In this document: positions 9,481 to 55,938 of the stretch, in pieces
Numbering within the stretch: position 1 is the first letter of the stretch
Layout: each line of letters opens with the position of its first letter
Assembly: GCA_965220385.1 (NCBI GenBank)
Contig: OZ244825.1
Span: forward strand, 212,769-276,768
DNA from: Candidatus Poribacteria bacterium
GTDB lineage: Bacteria > Poribacteria > WGA-4E > PCPOR2b
Direction: 5' to 3'
Length of the DNA stretch: 64,000 nt
Made by a program: the position numbers and the translations under genes
The notes under the pieces: generated by a model
Database searches by the model: none
The model's input: only the letters and a program-made list of their open reading frames with translations
Told to the model about the DNA's origin: nothing

Positions 9481-10635
9481 ATGGCACAGATAGAACGCAG
9501 TAGACTTGGACATTACGTGGCACTCGCTGTAATTGCGGTGGCAGTGCTGGTCTATCTCACCCCGATCTACTGGATTGTCGCAACATCCCTAAAATCGCCC
9601 AGTGATATTATTGCGCAGGTCCCCCAATTCCTGTTTCGGGTCACCCTTGAGCATTACCAGAAACTGATGCCCGATGCAGTGCCCGGGCTCACATACGTCT
9701 TCATTGCAGAAGCGTTGATCGGTATACTCGCCTGTTTCTTACCCGTCCGAAACATGGGGATTGCCCGTCGTTTTGCATTTCTGTGGAACGGCTTGCTGAT
9801 TTTAACCTGTCTTTACGCGCTTGCGACAACGATCAACTACAATTTCCTGATGCTGTCGATTTATACGATCGTCGTCTTCCTGCTGATTTCTCCCCACAGA
9901 TCAACCGAAGCGAGACGGGTTCGCCTGTCCCTCGTCGGTGCTAGTGTATTAGCAATCGTTGCCATCTGCACACTGTTCGCGCACGGAGGATCGAAATATT
10001 TCCACCAACTGCTGAATAGCATCATCATTGGGTTTGGCAGCACCCTGCTCGCCGTTGGGTTTGGGACACTGTCTGCCTATGCGTTCTCACGCTTCAAGGT
10101 CGCAGGCAAGGAGGATCTCCTCTTCTTCATCCTCAGCACACGGATGCTTCCTCCCGTCGTCGTTGTCATCCCAATCTACCTAATGTACAGCGCACTCGGA
10201 CTGCGTGACACCCACCTCGGACTCATCCTGCTCTACACCACTTTCAACGTCTCCTTCGCAGTTTGGCTGATGAAAGGCTTCATCGACGAAATCCCGAAAG
10301 AGTACGAAGACGCCGCCCTTGTTGATGGGTATACCCGCTTTCAAACCTTCGTCAAAGTTGTACTCCCCCAATCTGTGACAGGGATCGCTGCAACAGCCGT
10401 TTTCTGTCTAATCACCGCGTGGAACGAGTTTGCCTTTGCCCTTGTGTTGACCGAAGTTGGCGGCAGGGCGGTAACCGCGCCACCCTCAATTACCAGTGCG
10501 ATCGGATCTAGCGGCATTGATTGGGGCAAGATTGCGGCTGCAACCTTCGTCTTCCTCTTGCCTGTCGCGATTTTTACTTTCCTGATGCGAGGGCACCTCT
10601 TGCGTGGCGTTACATTTGGTGCAGTGAAAAAGTAG
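9481..10635 (+). CDS. Sugar ABC transporter permease with extra hydrophobic insertion
   Basis: EAA loop EDAALVDG.TRFQ.F; about 105 extra hydrophobic residues after TLEHY. Confidence 0.9.
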   Translation: MAQIERSRLGHYVALAVIAVAVLVYLTPIYWIVATSLKSPSDIIAQVPQFLFRVTLEHYQKLMPDAVPGLTYVFIAEALIGILACFLPVRNMGIARRFAFLWNGLLILTCLYALATTINYNFLMLSIYTIVVFLLISPHRSTEARRVRLSLVGASVLAIVAICTLFAHGGSKYFHQLLNSIIIGFGSTLLAVGFGTLSAYAFSRFKVAGKEDLLFFILSTRMLPPVVVVIPIYLMYSALGLRDTHLGLILLYTTFNVSFAVWLMKGFIDEIPKEYEDAALVDGYTRFQTFVKVVLPQSVTGIAATAVFCLITAWNEFAFALVLTEVGGRAVTAPPSITSAIGSSGIDWGKIAAATFVFLLPVAIFTFLMRGHLLRGVTFGAVKK

Positions 10636-10758
10636 AAATGCATTGGCGGACTTGCTGGAGGACGTGTTGACATTTATCGAATTTTGCTGACAAGCCCCCT
10701 TACTTTTAAGGAGGGGAGGTGGTCCGCCAAAATACGTTAATAGGTGAGATAAATAGGG

Positions 10759-10787
10759 TTGATTTTGAAGGTTGAGTCTGGTATAAT
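10759..10787 (+). promoter_or_regulatory. Sigma70-type promoter
   Basis: TTGATT-17-TATAAT with TGn extension; no ORF of 60 aa or more downstream on + before 11693. Confidence 0.6.
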
Positions 10788-10794
10788 CGCTTTA

Positions 10795-11050
10795 AGAAAT
10801 GGATGCACCGCTGAAAATGATTAGCAGGGGTAAAGTCCGCAGTCGTTTTCCCACCCTTCGATGGGAGTATGTTGTGGTGTTTTCCATCTTACCAAAGTTG
10901 CCCTTCGGGGCAGTGGATAGGGCGTTGTCCACTGGAGGAGACACCGTAAGATCCCGATAAATCGGGACAAGTGTCGTTGATACCACAATTCGACCTCCTA
11001 TTGACAATGGGTGAGTATCCCCAACCCTTTAGGATGTGGGAGTACGTCAA
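10795..11050 (+). mobile_element. Non-autonomous IS200/IS605-like element, TnpB omega-RNA-like right end
   Basis: Ends with hairpin TCCCCAACCCTTTAGGATGTGGGA then GTACGTCAA; upstream nested stems GGAGG/CCTCC and GACAC/GTGTC. Left boundary uncertain. Confidence 0.5.
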
Positions 11051-11073
11051 AACATAATATGGTGGCTCATGTA

Positions 11074-11156
11074 AAAACGGAGTGCAATTACGATTAAGGA
11101 ATACAGTGGAGAGCGGGGCAAGATGCCCCGCCTACGGGTTCTATTGCACACTTTCT
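11074..11156. mobile_element. 83-bp TA-flanked MITE-like element with intact GTAG-REP (11113-11135)
   Basis: TA at 11072 and 11157; partial TIR ...GTGCAAT / ATTGCAC...; REP GTAGGCGGGGCATCTTGCCCCGC on minus strand. Confidence 0.55.
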
Positions 11157-11374
11157 TAGCATGAGCCAAATAAGAAAAATAGGCTGCTCTGGGCTTTTTT
11201 AGCGAAAAAGGTAACACGAAAAAGGGAAAAGTTACACAGGTTACGGCATACGGAATTCCGCTGAATTCCCGATAAATTGTCCGATAAATCGAGGCCAGGG
11301 GGACAGGCGGTATTTCGATACGCTCAACTACAGGTTGTCTAGCAACTTGCGTTAATTATTAGACTGATATGTCA

Positions 11375-11671
11375 ATTTTAATCAATTGAGCCAGCCTTGA
11401 TGCGGTCTCCGGTGTGTCATTGGCGGAGAATTAGGCACTTGGTTATATGTGACGCATCAGTGTTAATTGGACATCGGTCTACCTGTTAGGCAATCGGGGT
11501 TTGTGGTCGTTCCATTGCGTTGGATTGTTGAACGCACCTTTTTTCGGTTCGGTTAGTTTCGCCGATTGACTATGGATTATGAACGTTCTGCTGAGACGGC
11601 TGAGGCAATGGTGTACATTGCTTCCATTTACTTGATGCGAAATCGTATCAAATGACTTTTCAAACAGGCTC
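11375..11671 (+). pseudogene. IS5-family transposase 3' remnant with right end
   Basis: One frame reads [41 protein letters not shown] with internal stops; terminal TTTTCAAACAGGCTC followed by TTA. Confidence 0.8.
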
Positions 11672-11692
11672 TTAAGATAAGGAGTATTAACA

Positions 11693-12670
11693 ATGTTAAA
11701 GTTTCAGATGGCTCTGATTGCCCTCTTGATCGGTTGCGTTGCCCTCATCTCCTGCGACCAGCTAGTAGTAGAAACATTAATACCAGCGCCACCAGAGGAT
11801 GATATGCCGGACGACATGATGGTTGGCTTGCCAATGTACATCGCAATGTACACTTCGTGGACGACGAATGTTACCTATCCCGAACCTGTAGGTACCGGTA
11901 ACGTGCACGGCGAAGGGGCTCGTACTGTTTACATCAACGACGTCGGAGCTATGGCGTTGGAAGATGAAAACCTGACCGCTTACCCCGCTGGGACTATAAT
12001 TGTCAAAGAAATCATGGACGACGCGAACACGTTTGTTCAGAAAGTCGCGACAATGAAGAAGACGGACGATTCGCGCCATAACGGGTGGACATACAAGAAA
12101 TATGCTCGCACCGATGAAAACACTGACTATATGCAGGTCGGAGGAGATGGACTCCCAGACGCAGCCGAAGGGTGTCATGCCTGCCACGCTGCAGCCCCCG
12201 TGGACAGTGTCTTCGTCGATTTCTCTATGGACGGCGAAATGCCAACTGACGGCGAAATGCCAACTGATGACACAATGGCAGCAGCGTACACCTCATGGCT
12301 GAGTGCTACACTTCCCACCGCTATCGGTTCCGGTGCTGCACACGGTCAGAACGCTCGCACCATCTATATCAACGATATCGGAGTGATGGCATTGCAGGCT
12401 GGGGAGACCACTTTCCCTGTCGGGACTATAGTGTACAAGGATATCATGGATGCCACGAACACCTCTGTTGTGTTAGTCGAGAGGATGGAAAAAACAGACG
12501 ATCCGATGTATGCTACAGAGAACGGATGGCTATACAACGAGGGTAACAGTCAAGCTGGGTGTCATGGCTGCCACGCGACCGCCGGTGTGGACCCCATCCC
12601 GGGCACAGACGCTGTCTTCACTGTCCCGGCCCTGATGGCTAGCCTCGCTGCCGCTGGCGCGGGTCAATAG
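11693..12670 (+). CDS. Lipoprotein with two tandem cytochrome P460/c'-beta family heme domains
   Basis: Lipobox LISC; two homologous domains, each with H...YIN, P.GT...K(E/D), M.K, GW, CxxCH (CHACH, CHGCH), D.VF. Confidence 0.8.
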   Translation: MLKFQMALIALLIGCVALISCDQLVVETLIPAPPEDDMPDDMMVGLPMYIAMYTSWTTNVTYPEPVGTGNVHGEGARTVYINDVGAMALEDENLTAYPAGTIIVKEIMDDANTFVQKVATMKKTDDSRHNGWTYKKYARTDENTDYMQVGGDGLPDAAEGCHACHAAAPVDSVFVDFSMDGEMPTDGEMPTDDTMAAAYTSWLSATLPTAIGSGAAHGQNARTIYINDIGVMALQAGETTFPVGTIVYKDIMDATNTSVVLVERMEKTDDPMYATENGWLYNEGNSQAGCHGCHATAGVDPIPGTDAVFTVPALMASLAAAGAGQ

Positions 12671-12823
12671 GACCAACGCGTAGCCTGAAAAACTGAAAAA
12701 TTTCTAGGGATACATGCATTGATCGGTGGTACCTAGCATCTCCTGATACCTCCTAAGAGTGCCGATCACAACGTTTTCGCAATTTGAGACAGCGAAGTAT
12801 CGTTTTGCTGCTTAAAAAAATTG

Positions 12824-12852
12824 TTGAAAATTAATGCGAAGTGTGATATATT
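12824..12852 (+). promoter_or_regulatory. Sigma70-type promoter upstream of the MDDG lipoprotein
   Basis: TTGAAA-17-TATATT with TGn. Confidence 0.5.
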
Positions 12853-13023
12853 CTTAGAGAAGTTATGTAGAATATGAATTTGGCAGGTGCCTATCTTTTG
12901 CCGGTTGCGCTTTTCACTGCAACTATCTACCAATAGATGCGTACCTTGTCATTACCTTGCGACGCAGCTTGCAGGTTTCCAACGTTTGCTGCGAAACACA
13001 TTTTAAAATAAGGAGTATTAACA

Positions 13024-13428
13024 ATGTTAAAATTTCAGATGGCTCTGATGTTCCTTCTAATCGGTTGTGTCGCGGTCATGGGTTGTAGCGACTCCGCCAT
13101 GGTGGATATGATGGGCGGTATGATGGACGACGACGACGACGATATGGACGGCATGGATGACGGCATGGATGACGGCATGGACGGCATGGATGACGGCATG
13201 GACGGCATGGATGACGGCATGGACGGCATGGATGACGGCATGGACGGCATGGATGACGGCATGGACGACGGCATGGACGACGGCATGGACGACGGCATGG
13301 ACGGCATGGACGACGGCATGGACGACGGCATGGACGACGGCATGGACGACGGCATGGACGACGGCATGGACGACGGCATGGACGACGGCATGGACGACGG
13401 CATGGACGGCATGGACGACAGTCAGTAA
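13024..13428 (+). CDS. Met/Asp/Gly tandem-repeat lipoprotein (hypothetical)
   Basis: SD AAGGAG, lipobox VMGC, leader nearly identical to that of the 11693 gene; remainder is MDDG/MDG repeats. Confidence 0.75.
   Translation: MLKFQMALMFLLIGCVAVMGCSDSAMVDMMGGMMDDDDDDMDGMDDGMDDGMDGMDDGMDGMDDGMDGMDDGMDGMDDGMDDGMDDGMDDGMDGMDDGMDDGMDDGMDDGMDDGMDDGMDDGMDDGMDGMDDSQ
13144..13419 (+). repeat. Coding tandem repeat of 9- and 12-bp units
   Basis: 7x ATGGACGGC, 6x ATGGATGACGGC, 11x ATGGACGACGGC, 1 partial unit. Confidence 0.95.
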
Positions 13429-13455
13429 TTTCAACCTTGACCTTAAGGGTTGAAA
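13429..13455. terminator. Hairpin after the MDDG gene, possible terminator
   Basis: TTTCAACC / GGTTGAAA stem. Confidence 0.45.
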
Positions 13456-13496
13456 AGCCATACACCAGTTAATGCCTAACAGTATACTTGGCTTAA

Positions 13497-13623
13497 TAAG
13501 CAAGAAGCTGGTAGGTAAAACACCGGTTGTTTTGGCTTGCCTTGTCGGTAGAAGAATTTCATATGCTATAACGAGGGGTTTGAACTGTGAAATCCCTCGC
13601 TTTAGCGTGTGAAAGCATGTCAA
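13497..13623 (+). mobile_element. Short non-autonomous IS200/IS605-like element (PATE-like)
   Basis: Left hairpin after AAGAAG; right end GAAATCCCTCGCTTTAGCGTGTGAAAGCATGTCAA. Confidence 0.5.
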
Positions 13624-13628
13624 TACCT

Positions 13629-14744
13629 ATGCCAACCGTGAAACTTGAAAATCTCACCAAGCGTTTCGATGACATCATCGCGCTTGACGGGATCAACCTT
13701 GATATCTACGATCAAGAATTCTTCGTCCTGCTCGGTCAGACCGGAGCAGGCAAAACAACCACCCTCCGTTGTATCGCCGGATTAGACCTACCTGAAAACG
13801 GCGCAATCTACCTCGATAATCAACAGATTAACCACCTCACACCCGCCGAACGGGATGTCGCTTTTGTATTTCAGGCGCATATCCTATATCCCCACCTAAC
13901 TGTCTACGAAAATATGGCATTCCCGCTACACCCGCGTGGCTTATCAGAGAACGAAATCCGTCTGCGTGTCACGGAAATTGCGTCAATGCTGCACATCGAT
14001 CACCTCCTACAGCGCAAACCGAACCAACTCAGCGGCGGCGAAACACAACGGGTTGGACTCGGCAGGGCAATGGTGCGGCGCCCCCAAATCTTCCTGATGG
14101 ACGAGCCAATCTCGAATCTGGATGCCAAACTCCGCACGGAGATGCGGGCAGAGATTAAGTGGCGGCAGCGCCAACTGGAAACCACTACTCTATACGTGAC
14201 CCATGACCAGATCGAGGCGATGTCGATGGCGGATCGTGTCGCTGTACTGGACGAAGGACGGGTTCAACAGGTCGGCACACCGATGGAGATATACGACCGC
14301 CCAGCGAATCTGTTCGTCGCCAGTTTCATCGGCAATCCAAGCATGAACCTGATTCCCTGTCAACTTGCGACTGCTGGAGAGGTGGTCTATCTGGATCTAA
14401 TTGGAGGGCATCGGATGCCGGTCAAGGACAAAAGAATTGCCCAGACCTTAATCGCGTCCGGAGGCAATCGAAATCTGATCCTCGGTGTGCATCCGGAGGA
14501 TGTGCTCATCAGCACTGACCGTTCCCCAGAAAATATCCCCGTAGAAGTCTATAGCTTTGAACCCCTTGGTGCGGAAACGATTGTGGATCTAACGCTAGGC
14601 AAAGACGAGGCGGGCGACGATATTATCTTAAAATCCAGAGTTGGGATGGCGTTTGAAGTGGGTATCGGGGCGACGTTGTGGATGACCTGTGTACCTGAAC
14701 GGATTCATATCTTCGACAAAGATACAGGTGAGGCGATTTGCTAG
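13629..14744 (+). CDS. Sugar ABC transporter ATP-binding protein (MalK-like)
   Basis: GQTGAGKT, LSGGE, FLMDEP, YVTHDQ, C-terminal TOBE region. Confidence 0.95.
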   Translation: MPTVKLENLTKRFDDIIALDGINLDIYDQEFFVLLGQTGAGKTTTLRCIAGLDLPENGAIYLDNQQINHLTPAERDVAFVFQAHILYPHLTVYENMAFPLHPRGLSENEIRLRVTEIASMLHIDHLLQRKPNQLSGGETQRVGLGRAMVRRPQIFLMDEPISNLDAKLRTEMRAEIKWRQRQLETTTLYVTHDQIEAMSMADRVAVLDEGRVQQVGTPMEIYDRPANLFVASFIGNPSMNLIPCQLATAGEVVYLDLIGGHRMPVKDKRIAQTLIASGGNRNLILGVHPEDVLISTDRSPENIPVEVYSFEPLGAETIVDLTLGKDEAGDDIILKSRVGMAFEVGIGATLWMTCVPERIHIFDKDTGEAIC

Positions 14745-16127: not shown

Positions 16128-18809
16128 GTGGCTCAAAAATATAAAGCTGTTTACTTTCCTGAACATCCAGCGGACACATCTCAGAAAAAATCGCTGACCT
16201 TGGCATTTGGTAAGAAAACAGATGAATTATACAAGTATGTTAAGGATCTTTCTAGTGCTGAACTCCGTCAGTTGCTACGGGAAGACTATCAAACCCTTGT
16301 GTCGAAAGCTGAAGCCGATGATTTACCACTAAACACCTATTGTCTTCGTCAATTAAAGCACACCGTAAACCTCATTCGGGAGCACGCTGTTCAGCTTCAA
16401 CTACCAGGCGTTGATGCAAAAACAGAATTATTTGATCCGGTAACTGTGACATTCAAGGGTGGCAAAAAAGAACCCTTTGCTCGATGGTATCCCTACTTAG
16501 AGGGATATTCCACTCAATTCGTGGAATCTATCTTAGAAAAGTATACTCCAAATGCACAGACTATTCTAGACCCATTTGCTGGGACGGGAACCACCGCCTT
16601 CACCGCATCACAACTTAATAAAACTGCTTATTTCTGCGAAATCAATCCTGTCTTGCAGTTTATGAGTTTAACAAAAATACGGGTCAGGCGATTAAAATGG
16701 TCTCAGCGTTCCGCGTTGGCTCGAGTGCTCACTCAAGCGAAGGTCTCATTGAATCAACTGGAAAAGTTCCCGCCAGATTATATCTTGCACCAAACCTACC
16801 TACAAACCTTTGGTAATAGTCTGTTTTTTGATGAGCCTGCTTATGACCAAGTTTTACGGGCGAAATCGTGGATTGATGAAGTGGCTCTTGAAAATCCAAT
16901 ATTGGCAGACCTGATTACTGTTGCAACCTTATCGGCACTTGTACCTGCGTCCCGAATGAAGCGAGCTGGTGATTTGAGATATAAAACGGATACAGAACTT
17001 GAGCGGCAAACAGTGCCACTCGCTGAAGGCATCCGCCAAAATATAGATCGGATAATTCATGATATTCGGGCTGATGTCGAAGGCCTGAAAACTGAGCCGT
17101 TGCTAATATGTGAAAACGCCCGTTCTTTAGGCGGCATATCTCCTCTTGGCATTGACGCTGTAGTAACAAGCCCTCCCTATGTCAACGGGACAAACTATTT
17201 TCGCAACACGAAGATGGAATTATGGTTCTTACGTTGTTTGAAAGAAAATAAGGATTTGAGAACATTTCGTGGAGCAGCCTTAACCGCTGGTATCAACGAT
17301 GTCACTGTTTCCAAAGCACTGTTACCATCTCACCCAGATGTTCAAAAAATCGTCTCTAAATTGGAACAGAATGCCTACGACTCCCGTATTCCTCGGATGA
17401 TTGCCAGCTATTTTAGCGAGATGACGGACATATTCCGGGCAATTCGTTCTCACTTAACCCCAGACGCGATGGTCGCGATTGATATCGGCGATTCTTGCTA
17501 TGCCGGCATTCATGTCCCGGTGGATACACTGCTGTCAGCCTGCTTGGATGAAATCGGTTTTGTTCAAGAGGATTCTGTAACGCTACGAAAACGCAAGTCC
17601 AGAGGCGGGATGTTGCTCAAACAGTCATTACTGGTTTTTAAGCCTGTTTCCAAACACAGAAGCTGCAATCCGCCCGAACAAGTTCCAGACTGGCGTACCG
17701 AATGGGACAGTTTCAAACAAAACCTACCTCATCAGAAAATCCCATTTACAAAACGGAATTGGGGGCATGCTTGGCACTCCCTATGTTCTTATCCCGGTAA
17801 GCTCAAACCTGCCATTGCACACCATTTGGTACGGACATTTGTTCCAGAAGGTGGACGAGTTCTAGATACTTTTGCAGGCGTTGGGACAATCCCACTTGAG
17901 GCGGCATTGGCTGGCAAACACGCCTACGGTTTTGAGATAAGTCCCGCTGCCTTTGCTATCGCTGGCGCAAAGGTTCGCCGCCCTACGGTGCTGGGTTGTG
18001 CGGCAGTTATTGAAACGTTAGAAGATTTCATCAGGTCCCACTCAACTACAGATGTAGAACTCGCTGAAGTGAATAACTTGGGTTTCAATGGCAAGATAGT
18101 TGAATATTACGAACCCCAAACCTTGAGCGAAATCATCTTGGCGCGTCGCTTTTTTCAAGTCCATCCGCCGAAGACTCCTGAAGAGCAATTTGTATGTGCC
18201 TCACTGCTACATATTTTACACGGCAACCGTCCCTACGCTCTCAGCCGCCGTTCTCATCCATTGACACCCTACAAACCAACGGGACCTTATGAGTATCGCT
18301 CGCTGATTGATCGATTACGTGCGAAAGTTGAGAGAGGGTTGGACGAAGGTTTGCCTGCGGATTTTCGTCCCGGCAAGATCTTCTTCCAAGATGCAACAAG
18401 CTGGTGGCCTCGAGAGGTTGATCAGTTGGATGCCGTTATTACATCTCCCCCTTTCTTTGATAGTACCCGATTTTATCTTGCAAACTGGTTACGGCTATGG
18501 TTTTCGGGCTGGTCTGCCCGTGATTTTGAAGCCTGTCCATCAGTTTTTGTTGATGAACAGCAAAAAAGCAGTTTTGATGTCTATATCCCGATTCTTCGCC
18601 AAGCGAAGGAACGGCTTAAATCGGATGGTGTGCTTGTGCTACATCTGGGTAAAAGTGTTAAGTGTGATATGGCTGCTCATTTACAGGAACTTGGTAAACG
18701 GTGGTTTCGTTCAACGGACCTTTTTGATGAAAGTGTTGCTCACTGTGAATCTCACGGTATCCGTGACAAGGGAACGGTTACCTCTCATCAGTATCTTGTT
18801 TTGTATTAG
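16128..18809 (+). CDS. Fused two-domain DNA methyltransferase, probably N4-cytosine
   Basis: Domain 1 DPFAGTG...SPPY; domain 2 DTFAGVG...SPPF. Confidence 0.88.
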   Translation: MAQKYKAVYFPEHPADTSQKKSLTLAFGKKTDELYKYVKDLSSAELRQLLREDYQTLVSKAEADDLPLNTYCLRQLKHTVNLIREHAVQLQLPGVDAKTELFDPVTVTFKGGKKEPFARWYPYLEGYSTQFVESILEKYTPNAQTILDPFAGTGTTAFTASQLNKTAYFCEINPVLQFMSLTKIRVRRLKWSQRSALARVLTQAKVSLNQLEKFPPDYILHQTYLQTFGNSLFFDEPAYDQVLRAKSWIDEVALENPILADLITVATLSALVPASRMKRAGDLRYKTDTELERQTVPLAEGIRQNIDRIIHDIRADVEGLKTEPLLICENARSLGGISPLGIDAVVTSPPYVNGTNYFRNTKMELWFLRCLKENKDLRTFRGAALTAGINDVTVSKALLPSHPDVQKIVSKLEQNAYDSRIPRMIASYFSEMTDIFRAIRSHLTPDAMVAIDIGDSCYAGIHVPVDTLLSACLDEIGFVQEDSVTLRKRKSRGGMLLKQSLLVFKPVSKHRSCNPPEQVPDWRTEWDSFKQNLPHQKIPFTKRNWGHAWHSLCSYPGKLKPAIAHHLVRTFVPEGGRVLDTFAGVGTIPLEAALAGKHAYGFEISPAAFAIAGAKVRRPTVLGCAAVIETLEDFIRSHSTTDVELAEVNNLGFNGKIVEYYEPQTLSEIILARRFFQVHPPKTPEEQFVCASLLHILHGNRPYALSRRSHPLTPYKPTGPYEYRSLIDRLRAKVERGLDEGLPADFRPGKIFFQDATSWWPREVDQLDAVITSPPFFDSTRFYLANWLRLWFSGWSARDFEACPSVFVDEQQKSSFDVYIPILRQAKERLKSDGVLVLHLGKSVKCDMAAHLQELGKRWFRSTDLFDESVAHCESHGIRDKGTVTSHQYLVLY

Positions 18810-19894: not shown

Positions 19895-20740
19895 TCATGC
19901 CCAGACAAACACCTCATCATCATCTGGCGAATAACCGATAAAGATAGCGAGGACCGTGCGTGGGGATTTGCCTTTAATGCCGGGGACTTCGTGAATACAT
20001 CGGGTATTAAAAAAGTAGAGATCGCCGACCTCTAAATCGACCTGAGTGTTTTCGACCTTGTTCTCTGCTGCATGCTGATGGAAGGTGTTATCTGTGATGT
20101 GGTGAGCGATTTCTGGCTGCCACAGGCAGCGATGGAGAATAGACTGTGCCGTTTCACCCTCAATTTCTGAATTCTGGAAGCAGAGGATCCCAGCCAGCTG
20201 ATGTTCGAAACGATACACCTCATAATTGACGCGATTCTCCCGCCATCTGACCGAATCGAAGTGGGGACTGTAGGAGATACCACCATAGTGGATCCGGAAA
20301 ATCGCAGGTCCATAGCGTCTGCCGTCAGGTTCATAAGCGGTCACGACCCGCTTGCCGGGTGCCAGACGGGCAAGATTTTCATAGAGCGTTGTAACTGGGT
20401 TATCGTATCCGTCGAACAGCGTTTCAAAGAGGGTGTGGGTCTCTACGGCGTGTGAAAAGAAATCCTCCGGTGAGTTGCCCCGATTGCCCAGACTGGTGCC
20501 GATGTCTATCCGCTCTCTTGGAACAATCGACGGATTGTTGTAATGCGTGTCCTGATCATACATCAAATCTTTTTCGATAAACCGTTGGATGAGTCCTTCG
20601 CAGTGTGCGGGGTTGTAAGCCTGACGGATCACCGGTGCCGGTGTGTGCATCTCCGCCAGTGCTTGGATTGGATTTGGATACTTCTCCAGAATCGTTTCCC
20701 AATCCGGCTCAATAGGTATCCACGGATCCTGTTGCGACAT
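19895..20740 (-). CDS. Fe(II)/2OG-dependent oxygenase family protein
   Basis: PHFD HxD motif, GDLYFFNTRCIHEV, distal Arg. Confidence 0.7.
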   Translation of the reverse strand: MSQQDPWIPIEPDWETILEKYPNPIQALAEMHTPAPVIRQAYNPAHCEGLIQRFIEKDLMYDQDTHYNNPSIVPRERIDIGTSLGNRGNSPEDFFSHAVETHTLFETLFDGYDNPVTTLYENLARLAPGKRVVTAYEPDGRRYGPAIFRIHYGGISYSPHFDSVRWRENRVNYEVYRFEHQLAGILCFQNSEIEGETAQSILHRCLWQPEIAHHITDNTFHQHAAENKVENTQVDLEVGDLYFFNTRCIHEVPGIKGKSPRTVLAIFIGYSPDDDEVFVWA

Positions 20741-49124: not shown

Positions 49125-50397
49125 AGCAAGTTTAAGTATACATTTTGAGTTTTTACAGAAGGGTGTGCTGGAGCTGCCCTGATTCATGAATCCCCATCAA
49201 AGATTGGAATCGTGAAAACGGTAATCTATCCAGCCACCCGATGACAGTTTGACAGAGTTGAGAGAAACTGTTGAAAAAATAACTCCTGTTAATTTGATCT
49301 CGCATCAGATGCCACAATCGCTCAATGAGATTCAGATGTGGACTATAAGTTGGCATCGGGACTAAACGCAATCGGTCTTTGTGGTGAATCAGGAAATCGT
49401 CAAGTTTTGCCGTTGTATGACTCGATGCATTATCACGGACGACAAACAGCAACTCATCGGGATACATATCCATTAGGTTTTGCCAATGTGTTTTGATCTG
49501 AAGATGGGTTTTATTGGCATAGATTTCATACAAGCCGGCCCCCGAAGGATACTCTAAGGAGCCGATGAGGTATTTCCGCCGGTTTTTGCCGGGGGTGTTG
49601 ACCTTATATTCAGTGCCTTGCTGTCGATAAATACGTCCACTGTTGGGACACCAAGACACGTTAGCTTCATCAAAGAAAAACAGGCGAGCCGTCTTTTTTT
49701 CGGTCTCAAGTGCAGACAGACCTAAACGCCGAAGTTGGGTATCCGGGAGAATCAACCGAGTCGCCTCACTCGTCAACTCTCCCGTTTTGGCAAACACCTC
49801 AACTCCGTCAGTTGAGTCCGTTTCGCTTGATATTCTGGATCCGGACTGCCAACACGGAGTTTGCTTCGACCGGTGCGGTAGCCTACCCGTCGTAAAGCCA
49901 GATGGATCGCTGGCGGTGTGACCGAAATCTCGTGATACGCTTGGAGATAAACTCTTATCAGCTCAAGCGTCCATTGTCGAGAGTCCGTCTGAAGTTTTTC
50001 GTATTGATTCGGCGTTTGCTCAAGAAGTCGATTCCAGTCCGATTTGCTAAAGTGTGTGATTTTACCACGACGCCCCGGAGGACGCTTAGGCATCAACGCA
50101 TCTAAACCAGAGCTATTGTATGTATGAATATAAGTCCTAACACTCTCATCAGAGAGATTAAACATCTTGGCGAGTTTCGACACGGGCATACGTTCAATGC
50201 CACTAAGTTTGATGATTAGTAAACGCCTATACCATTTCGGGTGTGTCGCTTCACAAAGCGCAACATCAAGACGTTCAACAGCCAAGGAATCGTTAAGTTC
50301 TGCGTAAATCATCAATTAAGACACTCCTTGTGAGATAGATTTACACACAGTATAACGCAAAACTCTATAAATTGGTGATTTATTATTTAATATTGCT
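49125..50397 (-). mobile_element. IS630-family insertion sequence, two ORFs (49773-50315 HTH; 49153-49797 DDE)
   Basis: FFDE, VVRDNASSH, SPHLNLIERLW; TA-flanked ends TAAGCAAGTTT.. and ..AATATTGCTTA. Confidence 0.9.
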
Positions 50398-50399
50398 TA

Positions 50400-50631
50400 A
50401 GCAATATTGAATAATAAACTTTCGATTCTCAGTAGGTGTCGCACCCGTAGGGGCGGGGTTTCCCCGCCCGCCATCGATGTAAAATGTGCATATTTAATAT
50501 TGAAACTTGCTTATGAGAGCAATATTGAATAATAAACTTTCGATTCTCAGTAGGTGTCGCACCCGTAGGGGCGGGGTTTCCCCGCCCGCCATCGATGTAA
50601 AATGTGCATATTTAATATTGAAACTTGCTTA
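50400..50631. repeat. Two identical 114-bp copies (50400-50513, 50518-50631) of an IS630-cognate MITE with REP cargo
   Basis: Direct comparison of both copies; ends match the adjacent IS630 ends. Confidence 0.9.
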
Positions 50632-52677
50632 AAACATCTTAGACCATCTCATATTGAATTGGGGCGTCCGCCCCGACTCAATAGCTTGCGCCCAGTTTAG
50701 CTTCCAATTGTCTCCTATCAGTAAACCGGCGCCCAGATTAACCTTCGGATCAGAGGTGCTGATTTCGCCTAACTTGTCCCATACCCCGCCTGCATCCGTG
50801 AAAAATGTAACGAATACCCCGTCAATGATGTGATGACGATACTCCAAATTGAGTAGGATACCCTGGTTACCAGCAAATTCATAAAGATCATACCCACGAA
50901 GCGATCCAGGACCCCCAAGAATAAATTGACGTTGAACCGGCACCTCCTTTGCTGAAAACCCAACTTTCAAACGGAGGTCAAGCATGTGCCAATCGCCGAT
51001 AGGTTGGTAACGTCTGGAGTGTATCTCAAATCGTGTAAAATCAAAGTCAGAACCCACCGCCGAATTGCTATGCTCCACTGCAAAGGTATTGTACCAACCC
51101 TCGTTCTCAAAACGACTATCAAAATCATATCTCAAAGCGATACTCCGCATTTGTCCGGGCGTTATTGGTGTATTTTTTTCCTTGTCCGATCTCCATCGAA
51201 AGAGGGACCAATCTGTCATTTTGTTCAGGCTTTCGTGATTTTCATTGATTACAGTCAGTTTCAAGGAATGGAGGAGTACCTCCGGTTGCCATCGTAGCGA
51301 GATTTCAGAACCAGCCTTCAGATAATAATCTCGGAAGTCCCCGCCATATAACAGGGCAGTCAGAAGTTGCTCGGTATCGTCTAGTAAAATATCTGGATCT
51401 CTTACCGATGTCAGGCGATGGAATTGAAACCTAACGGTCAGATTCCGGTCAACTCCTCCTAATAATCTTGCCTCTCCACCCGCTTCATAGTTCAACTGTT
51501 TGTTTGAAAAACCGTAGCTCAAAGCCCCAAATAGCTTCGGTTGAAGCGGTATCTCAATCTCCGTAGGTTTCGACAGTTCAAGCCGGGGTCCAAGTCGTAG
51601 CCCCTGTACGCGATTAAACCCACCACTCATTGTGAGGTCCATTACGATGTCCGGTAGGATCTCGTCCTTCGCTGTATTCTCCTCCACTGTAATTGTTACA
51701 ATCCGTTTATCTTCTTCTTGATGGATATGCCAGTCCGCTCGCCTGATATGCGGAAGAATGGCCTTCATTGTTTTGATAGCATTGCTAATGTCATCTGGTC
51801 CCTTTTCAAGCGCCTCTCTGATTTCCGAAGCCTTCACTCTTTGGTTGCCTCGAATCCGAACTTCATTGATTGGTTGCTTTTCCCTATCCATAAAGTGGGT
51901 TGAAGGAAATGAGAACGCTGTGTTCCCGGAGGGTTGATCCGTGATCGAAGGGGTTACACCATTAGGTTGTTTTTCCATCGATTTTGACCGTTCTTTGATA
52001 CCAAACCCGTCTTGATGGTCTTGGAACGGGTTGTCTTCCAAGGCGTTAAGTTGTGGGATGTCCACACCAACGCCTTCAAGGTTTCTTAATAATTCACCAA
52101 TCCGTTGTGGGTGCAGATGTCCGATGATATTCACTAGATGCGCTTCGGTTTCCCCTGTGACCATTACAAAAAGTCCGTCGATTGTCTCTGTATTGAGCAG
52201 TACCCATATTTGAATCTTCTCACTGTCCTCCCTGATTTTGGCAAAGGCTTCCCAACCACGCTTTTTCAACACCCGTTCATAGTAACGGATCATTGGGTCG
52301 AAACTCGTGGCATTACCAGAGTAGCTACGGACATATACTCCCGCTAGCATTGCAATCAATTCGGAAATCTCAGGTTCTTGTTCCGTCGTTTTAGCGACGA
52401 ATGCGATTAACTCACTATCTAGGTTCACTTCGACCTTTGGCTTTAGGGGAATTGGACCATTGAAGGTGACAACACCTCCTGCTGTTTCTTCTCTTTTTCC
52501 GCCTCGTACCCAACCAAGAATGGATTCAATCTGTGGCTTTAAGGGAATCGGAAAATCGAAGGCAATAACACCTCTTGCAGCCTCTTGCGTTTTTGCAGTC
52601 TCTGCCCAGCCAAGAACAGAAAGGGAGAGAATGAGCAGTAGGAAGACGATGGAACGACAGTTTGCATAGCGTTTCAC
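50629..52677 (-). CDS. DUF4252 + single POTRA + Omp85 (BamA/TamA-like) beta-barrel fusion
   Basis: Signal peptide; DUF4252-like block; INEVRIRGNQRV; LGGPGSLRGY, FTDAG, NLGAGL, C-terminal Phe. Confidence 0.8.
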   Translation of the reverse strand: MKRYANCRSIVFLLLILSLSVLGWAETAKTQEAARGVIAFDFPIPLKPQIESILGWVRGGKREETAGGVVTFNGPIPLKPKVEVNLDSELIAFVAKTTEQEPEISELIAMLAGVYVRSYSGNATSFDPMIRYYERVLKKRGWEAFAKIREDSEKIQIWVLLNTETIDGLFVMVTGETEAHLVNIIGHLHPQRIGELLRNLEGVGVDIPQLNALEDNPFQDHQDGFGIKERSKSMEKQPNGVTPSITDQPSGNTAFSFPSTHFMDREKQPINEVRIRGNQRVKASEIREALEKGPDDISNAIKTMKAILPHIRRADWHIHQEEDKRIVTITVEENTAKDEILPDIVMDLTMSGGFNRVQGLRLGPRLELSKPTEIEIPLQPKLFGALSYGFSNKQLNYEAGGEARLLGGVDRNLTVRFQFHRLTSVRDPDILLDDTEQLLTALLYGGDFRDYYLKAGSEISLRWQPEVLLHSLKLTVINENHESLNKMTDWSLFRWRSDKEKNTPITPGQMRSIALRYDFDSRFENEGWYNTFAVEHSNSAVGSDFDFTRFEIHSRRYQPIGDWHMLDLRLKVGFSAKEVPVQRQFILGGPGSLRGYDLYEFAGNQGILLNLEYRHHIIDGVFVTFFTDAGGVWDKLGEISTSDPKVNLGAGLLIGDNWKLNWAQAIESGRTPQFNMRWSKMF

Positions 52678-52741
52678 GGTTTGTTTTTTCCTTCTTATTG
52701 AGGTGTGTAGCTTACCTTGTCATTATCATGTTTTGTGAGAC

Positions 52742-53347
52742 TTATTCTGAGACGGGCAAACGGACACCATACTGTCCGAGATTTGCGTTCAGTTCGGCAA
52801 AGAATTCGGGACGGATATCGCACACGATCCGGACCACATGCATCTCATTGTTTTCAATTGTGACTATGAAGATTCCACGGAACCTGTTTGCATTGTATTT
52901 TGCATAAATGCAGGAACTGTGCTGATCTTCATAAACACGGGTGATTAAGTTCCATTTTTTCTGACGCATCAGTTCCGCGTAGAGGTCAAAAATTTCAGAT
53001 CTATCTGTTTCGGACGATTGATCTAAGATGAAGTGGCTTACTTGGACACTCTTTACTCCACGAATCGTGAGTGTCGCTGCCCGATTTTCTTCTTCGCCCA
53101 AAGATGTTCCAAGGTGTTTGAGTACCCACCAGCCGGGTCCTCCAATACCAAATCCTATCTCTTTGTGAACGTGGCTTAATCGATCCGCGCGACCAGTGTC
53201 CCCACCGCTTCCCAACAGGCAGCCGCAACCGATATTTACCGCGAGGAGGAGAGGGTAGATAAAAAACGAAAAACGTAAAATGTGATTAGCTGATCTATTG
53301 TTCATGATTTTTTTGAAGATTATCAAAACTAATTTGACAAGGTGCAA
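52742..53347 (-). CDS. Divergent DUF4252-like exported/lipoprotein
   Basis: KW.LI.RV.E, GIFIVT, VV.I..DI.PE; start may be the ATG at 53305. Confidence 0.65.
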   Translation of the reverse strand: MHLVKLVLIIFKKIMNNRSANHILRFSFFIYPLLLAVNIGCGCLLGSGGDTGRADRLSHVHKEIGFGIGGPGWWVLKHLGTSLGEEENRAATLTIRGVKSVQVSHFILDQSSETDRSEIFDLYAELMRQKKWNLITRVYEDQHSSCIYAKYNANRFRGIFIVTIENNEMHVVRIVCDIRPEFFAELNANLGQYGVRLPVSE

Positions 53348-53356
53348 AATTTCCCA

Positions 53357-53962
53357 CTACTCTTTCTGGGACTTACTCTTTTCTTCAGGCTTTGATTCGT
53401 TCTCAACCTTGATATCCATACCTTCAACATGAGGTAGACCAAGGTTGTCCAGATTTACAAGTAATTCGCCGATTCGTTCCGGATTGATTTCACCGACGAT
53501 ATTTACGAGGGTCACTTCTGCCTCTCCTGCGACCATGACGAAAAGCCCAAATATGATATCTTCACCGAGTAATATACGTACCTGAACAGTCTCTCCCTCT
53601 TCTTTGACTTTGGCGATGACCTCCCACTTTTCGTGTTCCAGCCTATCCTCATAATGGTGGACCAATTTATTATCAATCGTGGTGTGGTTTTCATAGACGC
53701 GGACATATACGCCTTTCAGCATTTCAAGTAATTCAGTGACTTCTGAGTTCGGTTTTGCGGCTTTGGCAACGAGTGAGATTAACTTACCACTTAAATTGAC
53801 CTCAATTTTTGCCTCCCGAGCGTTCGGAAAATCAAATGCAATAAGCCCTTTTGTTTCTTCCTTCTCTTTTTGGGCTTCAGCAAATGCTTCACCCCTAGGC
53901 ACTATGTCGATAAAAATACACAGACCGACTGCAAGTGTTACAATTTGTAAAATGTGTCTCAT
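53357..53962 (-). CDS. DUF4252 family exported protein
   Basis: EVNLSGKLISL, LKGVYVRVY, WE.IAKVKE, LVNIVGEI.PE.I. Confidence 0.8.
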   Translation of the reverse strand: MRHILQIVTLAVGLCIFIDIVPRGEAFAEAQKEKEETKGLIAFDFPNAREAKIEVNLSGKLISLVAKAAKPNSEVTELLEMLKGVYVRVYENHTTIDNKLVHHYEDRLEHEKWEVIAKVKEEGETVQVRILLGEDIIFGLFVMVAGEAEVTLVNIVGEINPERIGELLVNLDNLGLPHVEGMDIKVENESKPEEKSKSQKE

Positions 53963-54108
53963 AGTTCAGTCCCCTCCAAACAGAACACAGAGGCGTATTA
54001 ATTTCATTTGGATAGCTTGTCTATCAAGCTAAAATTATCGAGAGACAAGGAGTTGAGAATCTAAGGAGGCAAAGTTGCCAATGCTCTTGAACTCCTTGGA
54101 TTGTCGTC

Positions 54109-54690
54109 TTAAATGTCTTCATTTGGTTGGCTTGGTTCAGTGTCAATTTTGAGATCTTTAAGTTGGGGCAGATCTAGGTTCAGATTCATATCTTCCAAGT
54201 TACTGATGACATCACCAACCTTTTCAAAATCGATATGCCCGAAAATATTTACGAGGATCGTTTCCTTAGCTCCGGTGACCATGATAAACACACCGCTAAC
54301 TATCTCTTCATCAAAGAGCAAAGCAACCCGGACAATCCCATCTCCCTCTTTAGCTTTGACGATGGTTTCCCATTTGCCTACTTTCAGTTTGTTCTCATAG
54401 TGACGAAGCATCTGATCAAGATTCTCGCCATTCTCGTATCCCCGAATGTATACCCCTTTGATCATTGCCACTAATTTGCCAATTTCCGACTCGTGCTCCA
54501 CAGATTTGGTAAGGAGTGTGAACAGTTTGCTGCTCACGTTCACTTCAATTATCGCTTCGGATACATCGGAAAAATCGAAATTGATGCGCCCTTTAATATT
54601 TTCGTTTTGTATCTCAGCAATCCCATTTCCGACGGTAAAAAGGAGGGATAGCAGCACAGCAAGTTGTGTGAAGTTTATACATCGTTTCAT
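54109..54690 (-). CDS. DUF4252 family exported protein
   Basis: EVNVSSKLF.L, IKGVYIRGY, WETIVKAKE, LVNIFG.IDFEK. Confidence 0.8.
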   Translation of the reverse strand: MKRCINFTQLAVLLSLLFTVGNGIAEIQNENIKGRINFDFSDVSEAIIEVNVSSKLFTLLTKSVEHESEIGKLVAMIKGVYIRGYENGENLDQMLRHYENKLKVGKWETIVKAKEGDGIVRVALLFDEEIVSGVFIMVTGAKETILVNIFGHIDFEKVGDVISNLEDMNLNLDLPQLKDLKIDTEPSQPNEDI

Positions 54691-54740
54691 GAGTCGTTTT
54701 CTCCTAAATACGTTGAAGGTTATGGAAATGAGGAACAGCA

Positions 54741-55391
54741 TCACTCAGGTGACTGGTTATTGCCAAAATCCTCATCGTTACCAGTGGAACTATCTGTCAA
54801 TTTGTTGAGTATGATGAAGCTACGTTGAATTGTCTCTGAAGAGTTAATTTCATCCATCGTAAGCATTAACGCTCTGCGTGGTGCCTCTCTCACCTGATCG
54901 GCGGAAAGGCGTTTGTCGATAGCCAGTCCTGTTTTATGCATCGCGTAGCGCACCGTGCTCAAAGCATAACTGAGTTCGTGGGCAGCCTGTTCAATTTGTA
55001 AAGATTGCTGGTGCTGCTGGTATGCACCGAATGTCACGAGGATAATGAGGCTAGCAGTGACGGCTCCAACTGTAACCGGACGAATGGACAACCCACGTAG
55101 AGCTTGCTTCAATGAATCAAACCACCCCTGAGTGGTGGGCTGTGGATGAGATCGAACGTAGGCAGCAACGTGGTCAAAAACATCGGAAGGGGGTTCGGGT
55201 TTTGGCACTTCTTGCAACGCCTCACTGAGTTCAAGCGCGAAGTCCAACTCATTTTGGCAATCTTGGCATGTAGCCAGGTGTGTCTCAATTGCTGTTTGAG
55301 CGTCGGCGTTCAGTTCACCGGCAAGGTATTCTTCCAAAACCGAATGCACCTGTTCACAACGTATTGTTTGTGTTGTCGAATGTTGTTGCAT
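54741..55391 (-). CDS. Zinc-binding (ZAS) transmembrane anti-sigma factor
   Basis: HLATCQDC (HxxxCxxC), single TM. Confidence 0.85.
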   Translation of the reverse strand: MQQHSTTQTIRCEQVHSVLEEYLAGELNADAQTAIETHLATCQDCQNELDFALELSEALQEVPKPEPPSDVFDHVAAYVRSHPQPTTQGWFDSLKQALRGLSIRPVTVGAVTASLIILVTFGAYQQHQQSLQIEQAAHELSYALSTVRYAMHKTGLAIDKRLSADQVREAPRRALMLTMDEINSSETIQRSFIILNKLTDSSTGNDEDFGNNQSPE

Positions 55392-55395
55392 CGAG

Positions 55396-55938
55396 TTATC
55401 TCCCCATAAGGTTTCCCAATATATCCCGCAATTTCTTTTTTGCCCGAAACATATTTGATTTCACGGTGCCGACAGGCTGATTTAGCGTTTCCGCAATTTC
55501 CTCAAAACTTAATTCGTTTATTTCCCGCATAATCACGACCGTGCGAAAATGGAGAGGGAGTTGGGCGATTGCCTGTTGAACCAATTGTTGACGTTCCTGC
55601 CTCATATAGAGTTCTTCCGGCGATAGATCTGACGAGTCAGACGCCGTACCCTGATGCTGATGGTGAACCAATGTTTCAATTTCTTCAGTATCTCCCGTCG
55701 TTAACGGCACTTGAAATCTACGCCGGCGCAATAGGTCAATACATAAATTATTGGCGCATTTGAGCAGCCACGAATGGATTGTCTTGAGGCGTAATTCAGC
55801 GTTGGAATGCCACGCTTTGATGAAAGTCTCCTGAGTCACGTCCTTTGCGTCATCTGGGTTATTGAGCAGGTACAGTGCGTGTTGATAGACCTGTGCTTGG
55901 TACTGCTTGACGAGATCAAGAAATACCTCCTCTGGCAT
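55396..55938 (-). CDS. ECF RNA polymerase sigma factor
   Basis: DAKDVTQETF, SWLL..ANN.CID.LRR, EIAE.L..PVGTVKS..FRA. Confidence 0.95.
   Translation of the reverse strand: MPEEVFLDLVKQYQAQVYQHALYLLNNPDDAKDVTQETFIKAWHSNAELRLKTIHSWLLKCANNLCIDLLRRRRFQVPLTTGDTEEIETLVHHQHQGTASDSSDLSPEELYMRQERQQLVQQAIAQLPLHFRTVVIMREINELSFEEIAETLNQPVGTVKSNMFRAKKKLRDILGNLMGR

Follow-up and report, generated by a model that had tools for sequence, protein, structure and literature searches.

A probable lipoprotein of Met-Asp-Gly repeats and its cytochrome P460 partner in sponge-associated Candidatus Poribacteria

What might a bacterium gain from a protein made of little else than methionine, aspartate and glycine? The question is raised by a short gene, here called the array gene, in a 64,000-nt stretch of a Candidatus Poribacteria genome (contig OZ244825.1, positions 212,769 to 276,768, assembly GCA_965220385.1; hereafter the window, numbered from its first letter). 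The gene lies between that of a lipoprotein with two cytochrome P460 domains in tandem and that of a MalK/UgpC-like ATPase (Table 1), and farther upstream are genes for a solute-binding protein and two permeases of a sugar-type ATP-binding cassette (ABC) transporter. A preliminary description, made from the letters of the window alone, had seen here a lipoprotein built almost solely of Met-Asp-Asp-Gly units, and proposed a length-variable surface buffer for metals or oxidants that is linked to the neighbouring haem protein. The answer we arrive at, tentatively and with low confidence, is that the Met/Asp polymer, whether encoded by a separate gene or fused to P460 as a tail, would buffer the hydroxylamine/NO chemistry inside the sponge holobiont in a renewable way, as a sacrificial Met redox sink, a soft-metal ligand or both, and would be selected purely for composition while its repeats are continually reinvented.

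The product consists of MLKFQMALMFLLIGCVAVMGC, the predicted cleavage point, SDSAMVDMMGGMMDDDDDD and then 25 units, of which 17 are MDDG, seven MDG and the terminal one MDD, exactly as had been counted before. Every unit is 9 or 12 nt long and preserves the reading frame. The codon usage first noticed in the preliminary description was also found on parsing: the first six MDDG units read ATG GAT GAC GGC and the last eleven ATG GAC GAC GGC, and the chance of the six GAT units falling first among the 17 at random is 1/12,376. Tandem Repeats Finder reports periods of 12 and 21 nt (scores 378 and 308), the latter corresponding in block A to one MDG plus one MDDG unit with GAT, and block B includes eight consecutive identical units at 13306-13401. 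The expansion had been called polarised; the codon order behind that word stands, but two sub-arrays with separate expansions, of which the 3' one is the most homogeneous, describe the array better.

In the full 134-aa product Met makes up 25%, Asp 38% and Gly 21%. The mature part (114 aa) has 26% Met, 45% Asp plus Glu and 23% Gly; Lys, Arg and His are absent, and the net charge is about -51. Being without Lys or Arg, such array proteins would escape tryptic proteomics. Met/Asp-rich segments are confined, within the window, to the open reading frames (ORFs) of the P460 and array genes. The N-terminus (MLK...LLIGCVAVMGC followed by S) was accepted as a lipoprotein signal by inspection against the pattern [LVI][ASTVI][GAS]C with an N-terminal positive residue; its V-M-G-C lipobox is atypical in having Met at -2, where relatives show the canonical F/L-V/I-S-C, and the lipobox Cys is kept in at least 90% of 22 family members. 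By this pattern, the array protein is probably exported and lipid-anchored. The AlphaFold 2 model has a helix only at residues 2-19 and elsewhere no secondary structure, with a predicted local distance difference test score (pLDDT) of about 52, and the mature protein is predicted to be an intrinsically disordered Met/Asp/Gly polyanion. Several opposite-strand or alternative-frame ORFs overlap the array (13035-13412, 13057-13623, 13076-13465 and 13157-13453) and were set aside as shadows of the repeats, as they come without start context, signal peptide or conservation.

Repeats of this kind invite the suspicion of an assembly error, which the depth of coverage answers. In a sequencing run of the same host sample (X1), two 31-mer unitigs of the array (Logan) stand at 3.6x and 8.0x the depth of the flanks, where the window leads one to expect multiplicities of 3.76 (block A) and 8.17 (block B); this agreement with the assembled copy number confirms that the array is not an artefact. 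In a run from a different sample (X5) the multiplicity of block B is 2.4 and not the expected 8.2, a hint that the block is shorter there, though the coverage is low and noisy. Related strains have in-frame deletions of 3 nt and 15 nt at 13156, and three near-identical relatives (P0148, P0150 and P0152) differ only by the number of units. The two-block structure, the in-frame indels and the differences in copy number bear out the history of local slippage that had been proposed. A lookup of the exact product came back empty because short-read contigs break within the array; the runs that contain the sequence come from a host organism's sequencing project and from sponge, marine or coral metagenomes. 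A collapsing array, or a gene neither expressed nor conserved, had been named as grounds for abandoning the idea, and k-mer depth, RNA contigs and conserved orthologues (the last two given below) speak otherwise.

A phmmer search with the array protein returned only three weak compositional matches in 5.8 billion proteins, and Pfam and NCBIfam gave just spurious low-complexity matches (Yae1_N, FliH) far below their cut-offs. Relatives were found by synteny, using the loci of 406 homologues of the P460 neighbour, and all related genomic loci so found belong to metagenome-assembled genomes of Candidatus Poribacteria. In loci with the ABC transporter context, the slot between the P460 and ATPase genes holds a lipoprotein of 112-166 aa with the same signal peptide, a related head and different repeats. 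The units are MMDDG or MMTDDDDDD in locus L002, ADPM (about 20-25 copies) in L004 and L008, DMDMDMDD or DMDS in L005, MPMEPE in L009, GGMGGMANDDDDDD in L011, DMPEP in L012 and DMTEP in L020. The head pattern SDSAM[MVQ]DMMGGMMD is kept in L002, L005, L010 and L013 despite the differing repeats downstream of it. Across these loci the flanking ABC proteins are 88-99% identical and the P460 proteins 55-85%. A second, unrelated context has, in this order, genes for an enolase-superfamily protein, a SurA-like protein, a TPR protein, the small lipoprotein and P460, together with an amylase gene on the opposite strand; the small gene may lie up- or downstream of P460, and its repeats are MMDDGT, MMDDG, DMDG, MDD, MTDPG or MEGMTGMEGEDADKTG. 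Over both contexts, a small lipoprotein gene adjoins P460 in 20 of the 44 Poribacteria P460 loci.

What these proteins have in common is not the repeat unit. In the mature parts of 22 members, Met accounts for 11-34% of residues (one exception, at 1%) and Asp plus Glu for 20-54%, with zero to five basic residues. The signal peptide is kept in all 22, and each has a main repeat period divisible by 3 and an array open in the Met/Asp frame; 19 of the 22 aligned members end in x-Gln, as do many P460 proteins. Orthologous slots contain at least eight unrelated units, in arrays of similar total length and similar Met/acid content; composition and not repeat sequence is conserved. Selection preserves an open frame, the membrane anchor, acidity and, for the majority of members, a high Met content, while the repeats themselves are replaced by replication slippage and new expansions. 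A profile built from ten relatives, nine of them with the family signal peptide, matched only 74 clusters in 1.84 billion representative proteins, and the three matches that carry a name in another database are all 'hypothetical protein' of Poribacteria. No Pfam or NCBIfam model covers the array protein, and we regard the family, whose members are always neighbours of P460 proteins or fused to them, as specific to Poribacteria and undescribed. A calcium-binding DxDxDG or EF-hand-like reading was considered and rejected, the spacing D-x-[DN]-x-[DN]-G not being produced by MDDG/MDG units; relatives with DMDMDG or DGDMDG fit this spacing but the Pro-containing ADPM and MPMEPE arrays do not, so that it is not a family-wide feature.

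Compositional analogues occur outside Poribacteria. In another sponge-associated lineage, a lipoprotein with a different signal peptide carries GMDGEED or GMAEEDD repeats (P0001, at 6001-6498 of L050, and P0196); the P0001-type gene adjoins genes for a FecCD-type ABC transporter, Peripla_BP_2 and a TonB-dependent receptor, and the gene context of P0001 and P0003 shows no link to P460. Lipoproteins with Met/acid repeats may be a wider theme in sponge microbiomes.

The association with P460 goes beyond adjacency. The partner protein matches PF16694 in two stretches (59.1 bits against a cut-off of 27) and has a Met/Asp-rich tether and interdomain linker. The profile of its family matches Methylococcus capsulatus P460 (6HIU) at E 8e-6, with 6HIU and 9HRK both at E of about 1e-5, and in the alignment the invariant K105 and K249 lie in a ..VK.. 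motif opposite Lys78 of 6HIU, the residue that cross-links the haem in McP460 (table 2 of PMC11928373). Known members of the P460 and cytochrome c'-beta group are homodimers (PMC11928373), and the tandem protein could be an intramolecular dimer; its AlphaFold model was of unusable quality (pLDDT 52, predicted template modelling score 0.38). A tentative assignment, from a weak profile alignment, puts Glu of domain 2 and Ala of domain 1 at the place of the distal carboxylate of active P460s (Asp102 in McP460).

The P460 and array genes are identical at 47 of 49 nt over the Shine-Dalgarno site and the first eight codons, and the signal peptides of their products are paralogous. The same kind of material recurs within P460 proteins: in interdomain linkers of at least 25 aa, Met makes up 0-38% (mostly 5-38%) and Asp 16-42%, and C-terminal tails of at least 25 aa occur in 29 of 116 homologues, several of these tails containing His (DHTDHVDDD in P0025, and elsewhere DDHMKDDDMM or ADHMHDHMDH). 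In L036 the P460 tail and the adjacent small protein have the MDD unit in common. Even the P460 domains are rich in Met (median 4.8%, where 29 other proteins of the window have 1.8%). Nothing speaks more strongly for a joint action of array and haem protein than L052, which has the same ABC context and no separate small gene. Here a single-domain P460 ends in ...MDGMDDMDDG(AMDDG)6Q, and the DNA 3' of its stop codon is orthologous to that 3' of the small-gene stop in the window, L002 and L005; from this comparison, L052 is an in-frame fusion of array and P460. Because of the two gene contexts, the matching linkers and tails and this fusion, the link to the haem protein, already proposed in the preliminary description, is strongly supported, far more so than the letters of the window alone could show. 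On the same sequence evidence, the array protein is best viewed as a 'domain-less' relative of the tandem P460, with the same ribosome-binding site, signal peptide, Met/Asp material and x-Gln end and without a haem domain. The Poribacteria tandem P460 lipoproteins are themselves undescribed, and a literature search retrieved no paper linking Poribacteria with P460 or with methionine sulfoxide reductase.

The array gene also has the marks of an expressed unit (Table 1). Both hexamers of its promoter-like site are unchanged across seven orthologous loci. RNA was assessed in two sponge metatranscriptomes of related strains (X13 and X17), with contig k-mer depth, and not mapped reads, as a crude measure. 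In X17 a contig starts at 12853 and spans 12853-13200 at depth 21, in X13 another spans 12930-13111 at depth 544, and in neither run is 12680-12852 covered by an RNA contig. From the end of the array into the ATPase gene the depth is 21 (X13) and 7 (X17), so that it drops across the gene's end from 544 to 21 and from 21 to 7, respectively. These data indicate a separate promoter and strong transcription of the array gene. A scan for intrinsic terminators 3' of the gene found none; the hairpin that follows the stop codon is not significant alone (z -1.2), and its sequence is kept in orthologues. Contigs of paralogous P460 genes in X13 and X17 (about 86% identity over 65 nt, 11981-12045) have depths of 577 and 1232, and the P460 family as a whole seems to be strongly expressed in sponge-associated Poribacteria.

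The leader is better conserved than the coding sequences that flank it, with a mean column identity of 85% over 11 lineages where the P460 proteins are just 55-85% identical, and it partly resembles the leader of the P460 gene. One pair of its hairpin occurs as C-G, U-G and U-A. In the consensus fold, compensatory changes affect 3 of 43 pairs (covariation term -2.2 kcal/mol), which is suggestive only, and an Rfam scan of the whole window, leader included, gave no match. Judged by this conservation, the leader may be a cis-regulatory RNA.

Table 1. Coordinates of the array gene, its parts and its surroundings in the window.
Feature	Position	Strand	Remarks
Partner lipoprotein gene, two cytochrome P460 domains (CHACH, CHGCH)	11693-12670	+	325 aa; PF16694
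Promoter-like site, TTGAAA-17 nt-TATATT with TG extension	12824-12852	+	consensus scan
Conserved leader	12853-13023	+	about 170 nt; alignment across lineages
Leader hairpin CGCAGC...GCUGCG	12963-12993	+	
Shine-Dalgarno AAGGAG	13010-13015	+	8 nt 5' of ATG
Array lipoprotein ORF	13024-13428	+	405 nt, 134 aa
Signal peptide, lipobox VMGC	13024-13086	+	read from sequence
Predicted lipidated Cys21	13084-13086	+	
Non-repeat head	13087-13143	+	19 aa
Repeat block A: 5 MDG and 6 MDDG (all GAT-GAC)	13144-13260	+	effective period 21 nt
Repeat block B: 11 MDDG (all GAC-GAC), 2 MDG and MDD	13261-13419	+	period 12 nt
C-terminal Ser-Gln and stop codon	13420-13428	+	
10-bp hairpin without U-run, right after stop codon	13429-13455	+	dG -11.2 kcal/mol, z -1.2
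MalK/UgpC-like ATPase gene	13587-14744		

Is the array gene then more than a by-product of its neighbour? Had a 5' piece of the P460 gene been duplicated and its linker become a coding minisatellite that expands by itself, this would account for the common 5' end, for the loss or decay of the gene in some loci and for the high nucleotide identity of the repeats, which implies recent expansions. We consider such a functionless remnant the least probable of the readings, because deep Poribacteria lineages still have the gene, in both gene contexts and at nearly half of the P460 loci, all 22 arrays have stayed in frame, conservation extends to promoter, leader, lipobox, head and C-terminal end, and transcription is strong.

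The pace at which the repeats are replaced, compared with flanking proteins of 88-99% identity, raises another possibility, namely that of a size-variable lipoprotein, comparable to those of mycoplasmas, at the interface with host, phages or grazers that is under diversifying selection, its association with P460 being a by-product of partial gene duplication. P460 is also fast-evolving, copy number differs among strains and the organism is an obligate sponge symbiont. All the same we think this improbable. Since all periods are multiples of 3, a change in repeat number could not turn the gene on or off, a conserved composition is unexpected under antigenic diversification, and the in-frame fusion and matching tails favour a functional link with P460. 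The surface location put forward in the preliminary description is not supported, as nothing points to export beyond the periplasm.

A functional link leaves the chemistry of the array to be explained, and here we tentatively place first the reading, possible rather than probable, that its Met residues would be a sink for reactive species made at P460, carried on a disordered polyanionic chain with a lipid anchor. The array would work nanometres from P460: in trans where both are anchored in one membrane, in cis where it forms a fused tail. The P460 haem would oxidise hydroxylamine to NO/N2O and mature with peroxide, giving rise to reactive nitrogen and oxygen species, and the Met residues of the array would sacrificially absorb these. 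Owing to its aspartates the chain would stay soluble and unfolded and be pushed away from the anionic membrane, standing as an extended brush. A Met sink would explain the free spacing of the Met residues, the tethering or adjacency to the enzyme, the Met found in linkers and domains, and the high transcription.

A number of observations weigh against this. Genes for methionine sulfoxide reductases (MsrP/Q, MsrA/B), which share an operon with the Met-rich peptides in the MrpX and BcrX systems compared below, are absent from the 64-kb window and from the 5-kb flanks on either side of 36 loci (L014-L049), and the array gene forms no operon with MsrPQ or an extracytoplasmic function (ECF) sigma factor; the only ECF sigma pair of the window (54741-55938) is 40 kb from the array gene. 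The small gene is dispensable, being absent in L006 and L026, where P460 abuts the ATPase gene, and a pseudogene in L010 (6355-6777), where frameshifts within the array leave pieces of 73 and 61 aa. Some members are low in Met, such as L028 (1%) and the Asp/Thr/Ala/Pro-rich P0131, P0184 and P0187, and several P460 tails are rich in His and Asp but not in Met (P0025), which is more like metal binding. A redox sink does not need the extreme negative charge, catalysis by these P460 proteins is only putative, and the depth figures behind the high transcription are crude.

The Met-poor members, to which P0199 may be added, bring forward another reading in which Met is chemically idle and the array is a passive acidic spacer or brush, a charged disordered tether that would fill or organise the periplasm around P460 or act as a hard-cation/Donnan buffer. 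Acidity and disorder are the sole universal features of the family, P460 proteins use such low-complexity material as tether and interdomain linker, and the ABC-context orthologues are fairly constrained in total length (112-166 aa). On balance this seems unlikely to us, since a Met content of 11-34% in 21 of the 22 members, set against the 1.8% background, is hard to reconcile with a neutral linker, for which Ser, Gly, Thr, Pro and Glu are the usual residues, and a mere spacer would not usually have a gene of its own with strong transcription and a conserved promoter.

The His-bearing tails point elsewhere, and a periplasmic metal buffer or chaperone, a lipid-anchored 'metal sponge' in which Met would bind Cu(I)/Ag(I) and Asp (with His in some relatives) Cu(II)/Zn/Ca, comes a close second to the Met sink in our ranking, again as a tentative possibility; the spacer, the interface protein and the remnant stand lower. 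The side chains of the family are all ligands (Met, Asp/Glu and sometimes His), Lys and Arg are nearly absent, and MDH, HMDH or DHxD repeats occur in the P460 tails of P0025, P0028, P0030 and P0090. There are precedents in the labile copper site of CueO, which consists of two Met and two Asp (PMC6155172), and in SilE, an intrinsically disordered periplasmic metal sponge (PMC5008109), and the transporter and TonB-receptor genes beside P0001, with its GMDGEED repeats, fit the same role. Yet no cop, cus, sil, pco or czc genes were found in the window or within 5 kb on either side of the related loci, and His is lacking in the protein of the window. The distance from one Met to the next varies among orthologues between 0 and 9 residues, so that no defined site is conserved, and there is no known reason for a copper-binding tail on a haem-only enzyme, to which the array is nonetheless fused in L052. 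A role in buffering metals or oxidants, as first proposed, is plausible on this analysis, with the Met sink ahead of the metal ligand.

The surroundings of the locus have several features of their own. Between the second ABC permease gene and the P460 gene is a 1,057-nt stretch without a credible ORF (10636-11692; the gap in L002 is about 320 nt), which has no similarity to the loci compared save in its last 50 nt and no Rfam match, and which contains a promoter-like site at 10759-10787. In the permease itself (9481-10635, 384 aa), the BPD_transp_1 domain is preceded by an N-terminal extension of some 190 residues, which is kept in all orthologous loci. L002 carries a TnpB/IS605 OrfB gene upstream of the ABC operon, and the window does not. 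Downstream of the array gene are an 893-aa protein with two N6_N4 DNA-methylase domains (16128-18809), kept in L004, L010, L011 and L052, and a homologue of the WelO5-like Fe/2-oxoglutarate halogenases (19895-20740; PF22814, E 1e-18), syntenic in L002 and L005. At 49153-50315 a DDE_3 transposase and its helix-turn-helix part are encoded by two overlapping ORFs in the manner of IS630. The ECF sigma factor mentioned above belongs to a minus-strand cluster (50629-55938) with a zf-HC2 anti-sigma factor, three DUF4252 proteins and an Omp85-like protein, and the last bears a fourth DUF4252 domain.

Standard sequence search misses the family, yet in a phylum that is among the dominant sponge symbionts its gene is conserved, shows strong transcription and is tied genetically to a haem enzyme of the nitrogen cycle. 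It is a clean natural example of selection on composition, and the fusion supplies a concrete partner. If the role as a redox sink or metal buffer is true, the array would show how a symbiont copes with hydroxylamine and NO from co-resident ammonia oxidisers, the principle of MrpX would extend beyond chlorine stress, and enzyme-coupled 'composition-only' proteins would form a new functional class.

Among known systems, the Vlp and Vsa proteins of mycoplasmas have a similar layout, in which, as in the array protein, in-frame tandem repeats come after a lipoprotein signal peptide and differ in number from strain to strain. They are surface-exposed in wall-less bacteria and phase-variable, and are not defined by a Met/Asp composition or by a haem-protein partner.

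The closest parallel in design, and an experimentally established precedent for the Met sink, is MrpX of Azospira suillum, a small, exported and unfolded protein with 20% Met and 44% charged residues and no sequence conservation, which is oxidised by HOCl made by a periplasmic haem enzyme (PMC4436054); BcrX of Brucella is a comparable Met-rich periplasmic peptide (PMC8315932). Like these, the array protein is small, exported, highly charged and predicted to be unfolded, has about 20-30% Met, retains composition over sequence and is associated with a periplasmic haem enzyme, at which, in the known cases, reactive species are produced. It differs in its predicted lipid anchor, in being purely acidic and without Lys, and in its partner, which is P460 and not the chlorite dismutase of MrpX; it also lacks the MXKDX pentapeptide of these 'MXKDX repeat' proteins and has no NCBIfam match. 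With SilE, PcoE and the Met-rich regions of CueO, CopA and PcoA it has in common a periplasmic, disordered and Met-rich nature, and some P460 tails have MDH-like repeats, but the window protein is without His and HxxM or MxxH motifs, has no metal-resistance genes nearby and no detectable sequence similarity to them. The partner resembles cytochrome P460 in its two PF16694 domains, each with CXXCH and a Lys that aligns with Lys78; known P460s are soluble and single-domain, whereas those described here are predicted lipoproteins, mostly of two domains, with Met/Asp/His low-complexity tethers, linkers and tails. Since neither the MrpX/MXKDX nor the SilE/PcoE features fit, the array protein belongs to no described family, and at most works like these proteins. 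What it would add to the periplasmic, Met-rich, disordered proteins is a lipid anchor, a purely polyanionic chain, coupling or fusion to P460, and the wholesale replacement of its repeats.

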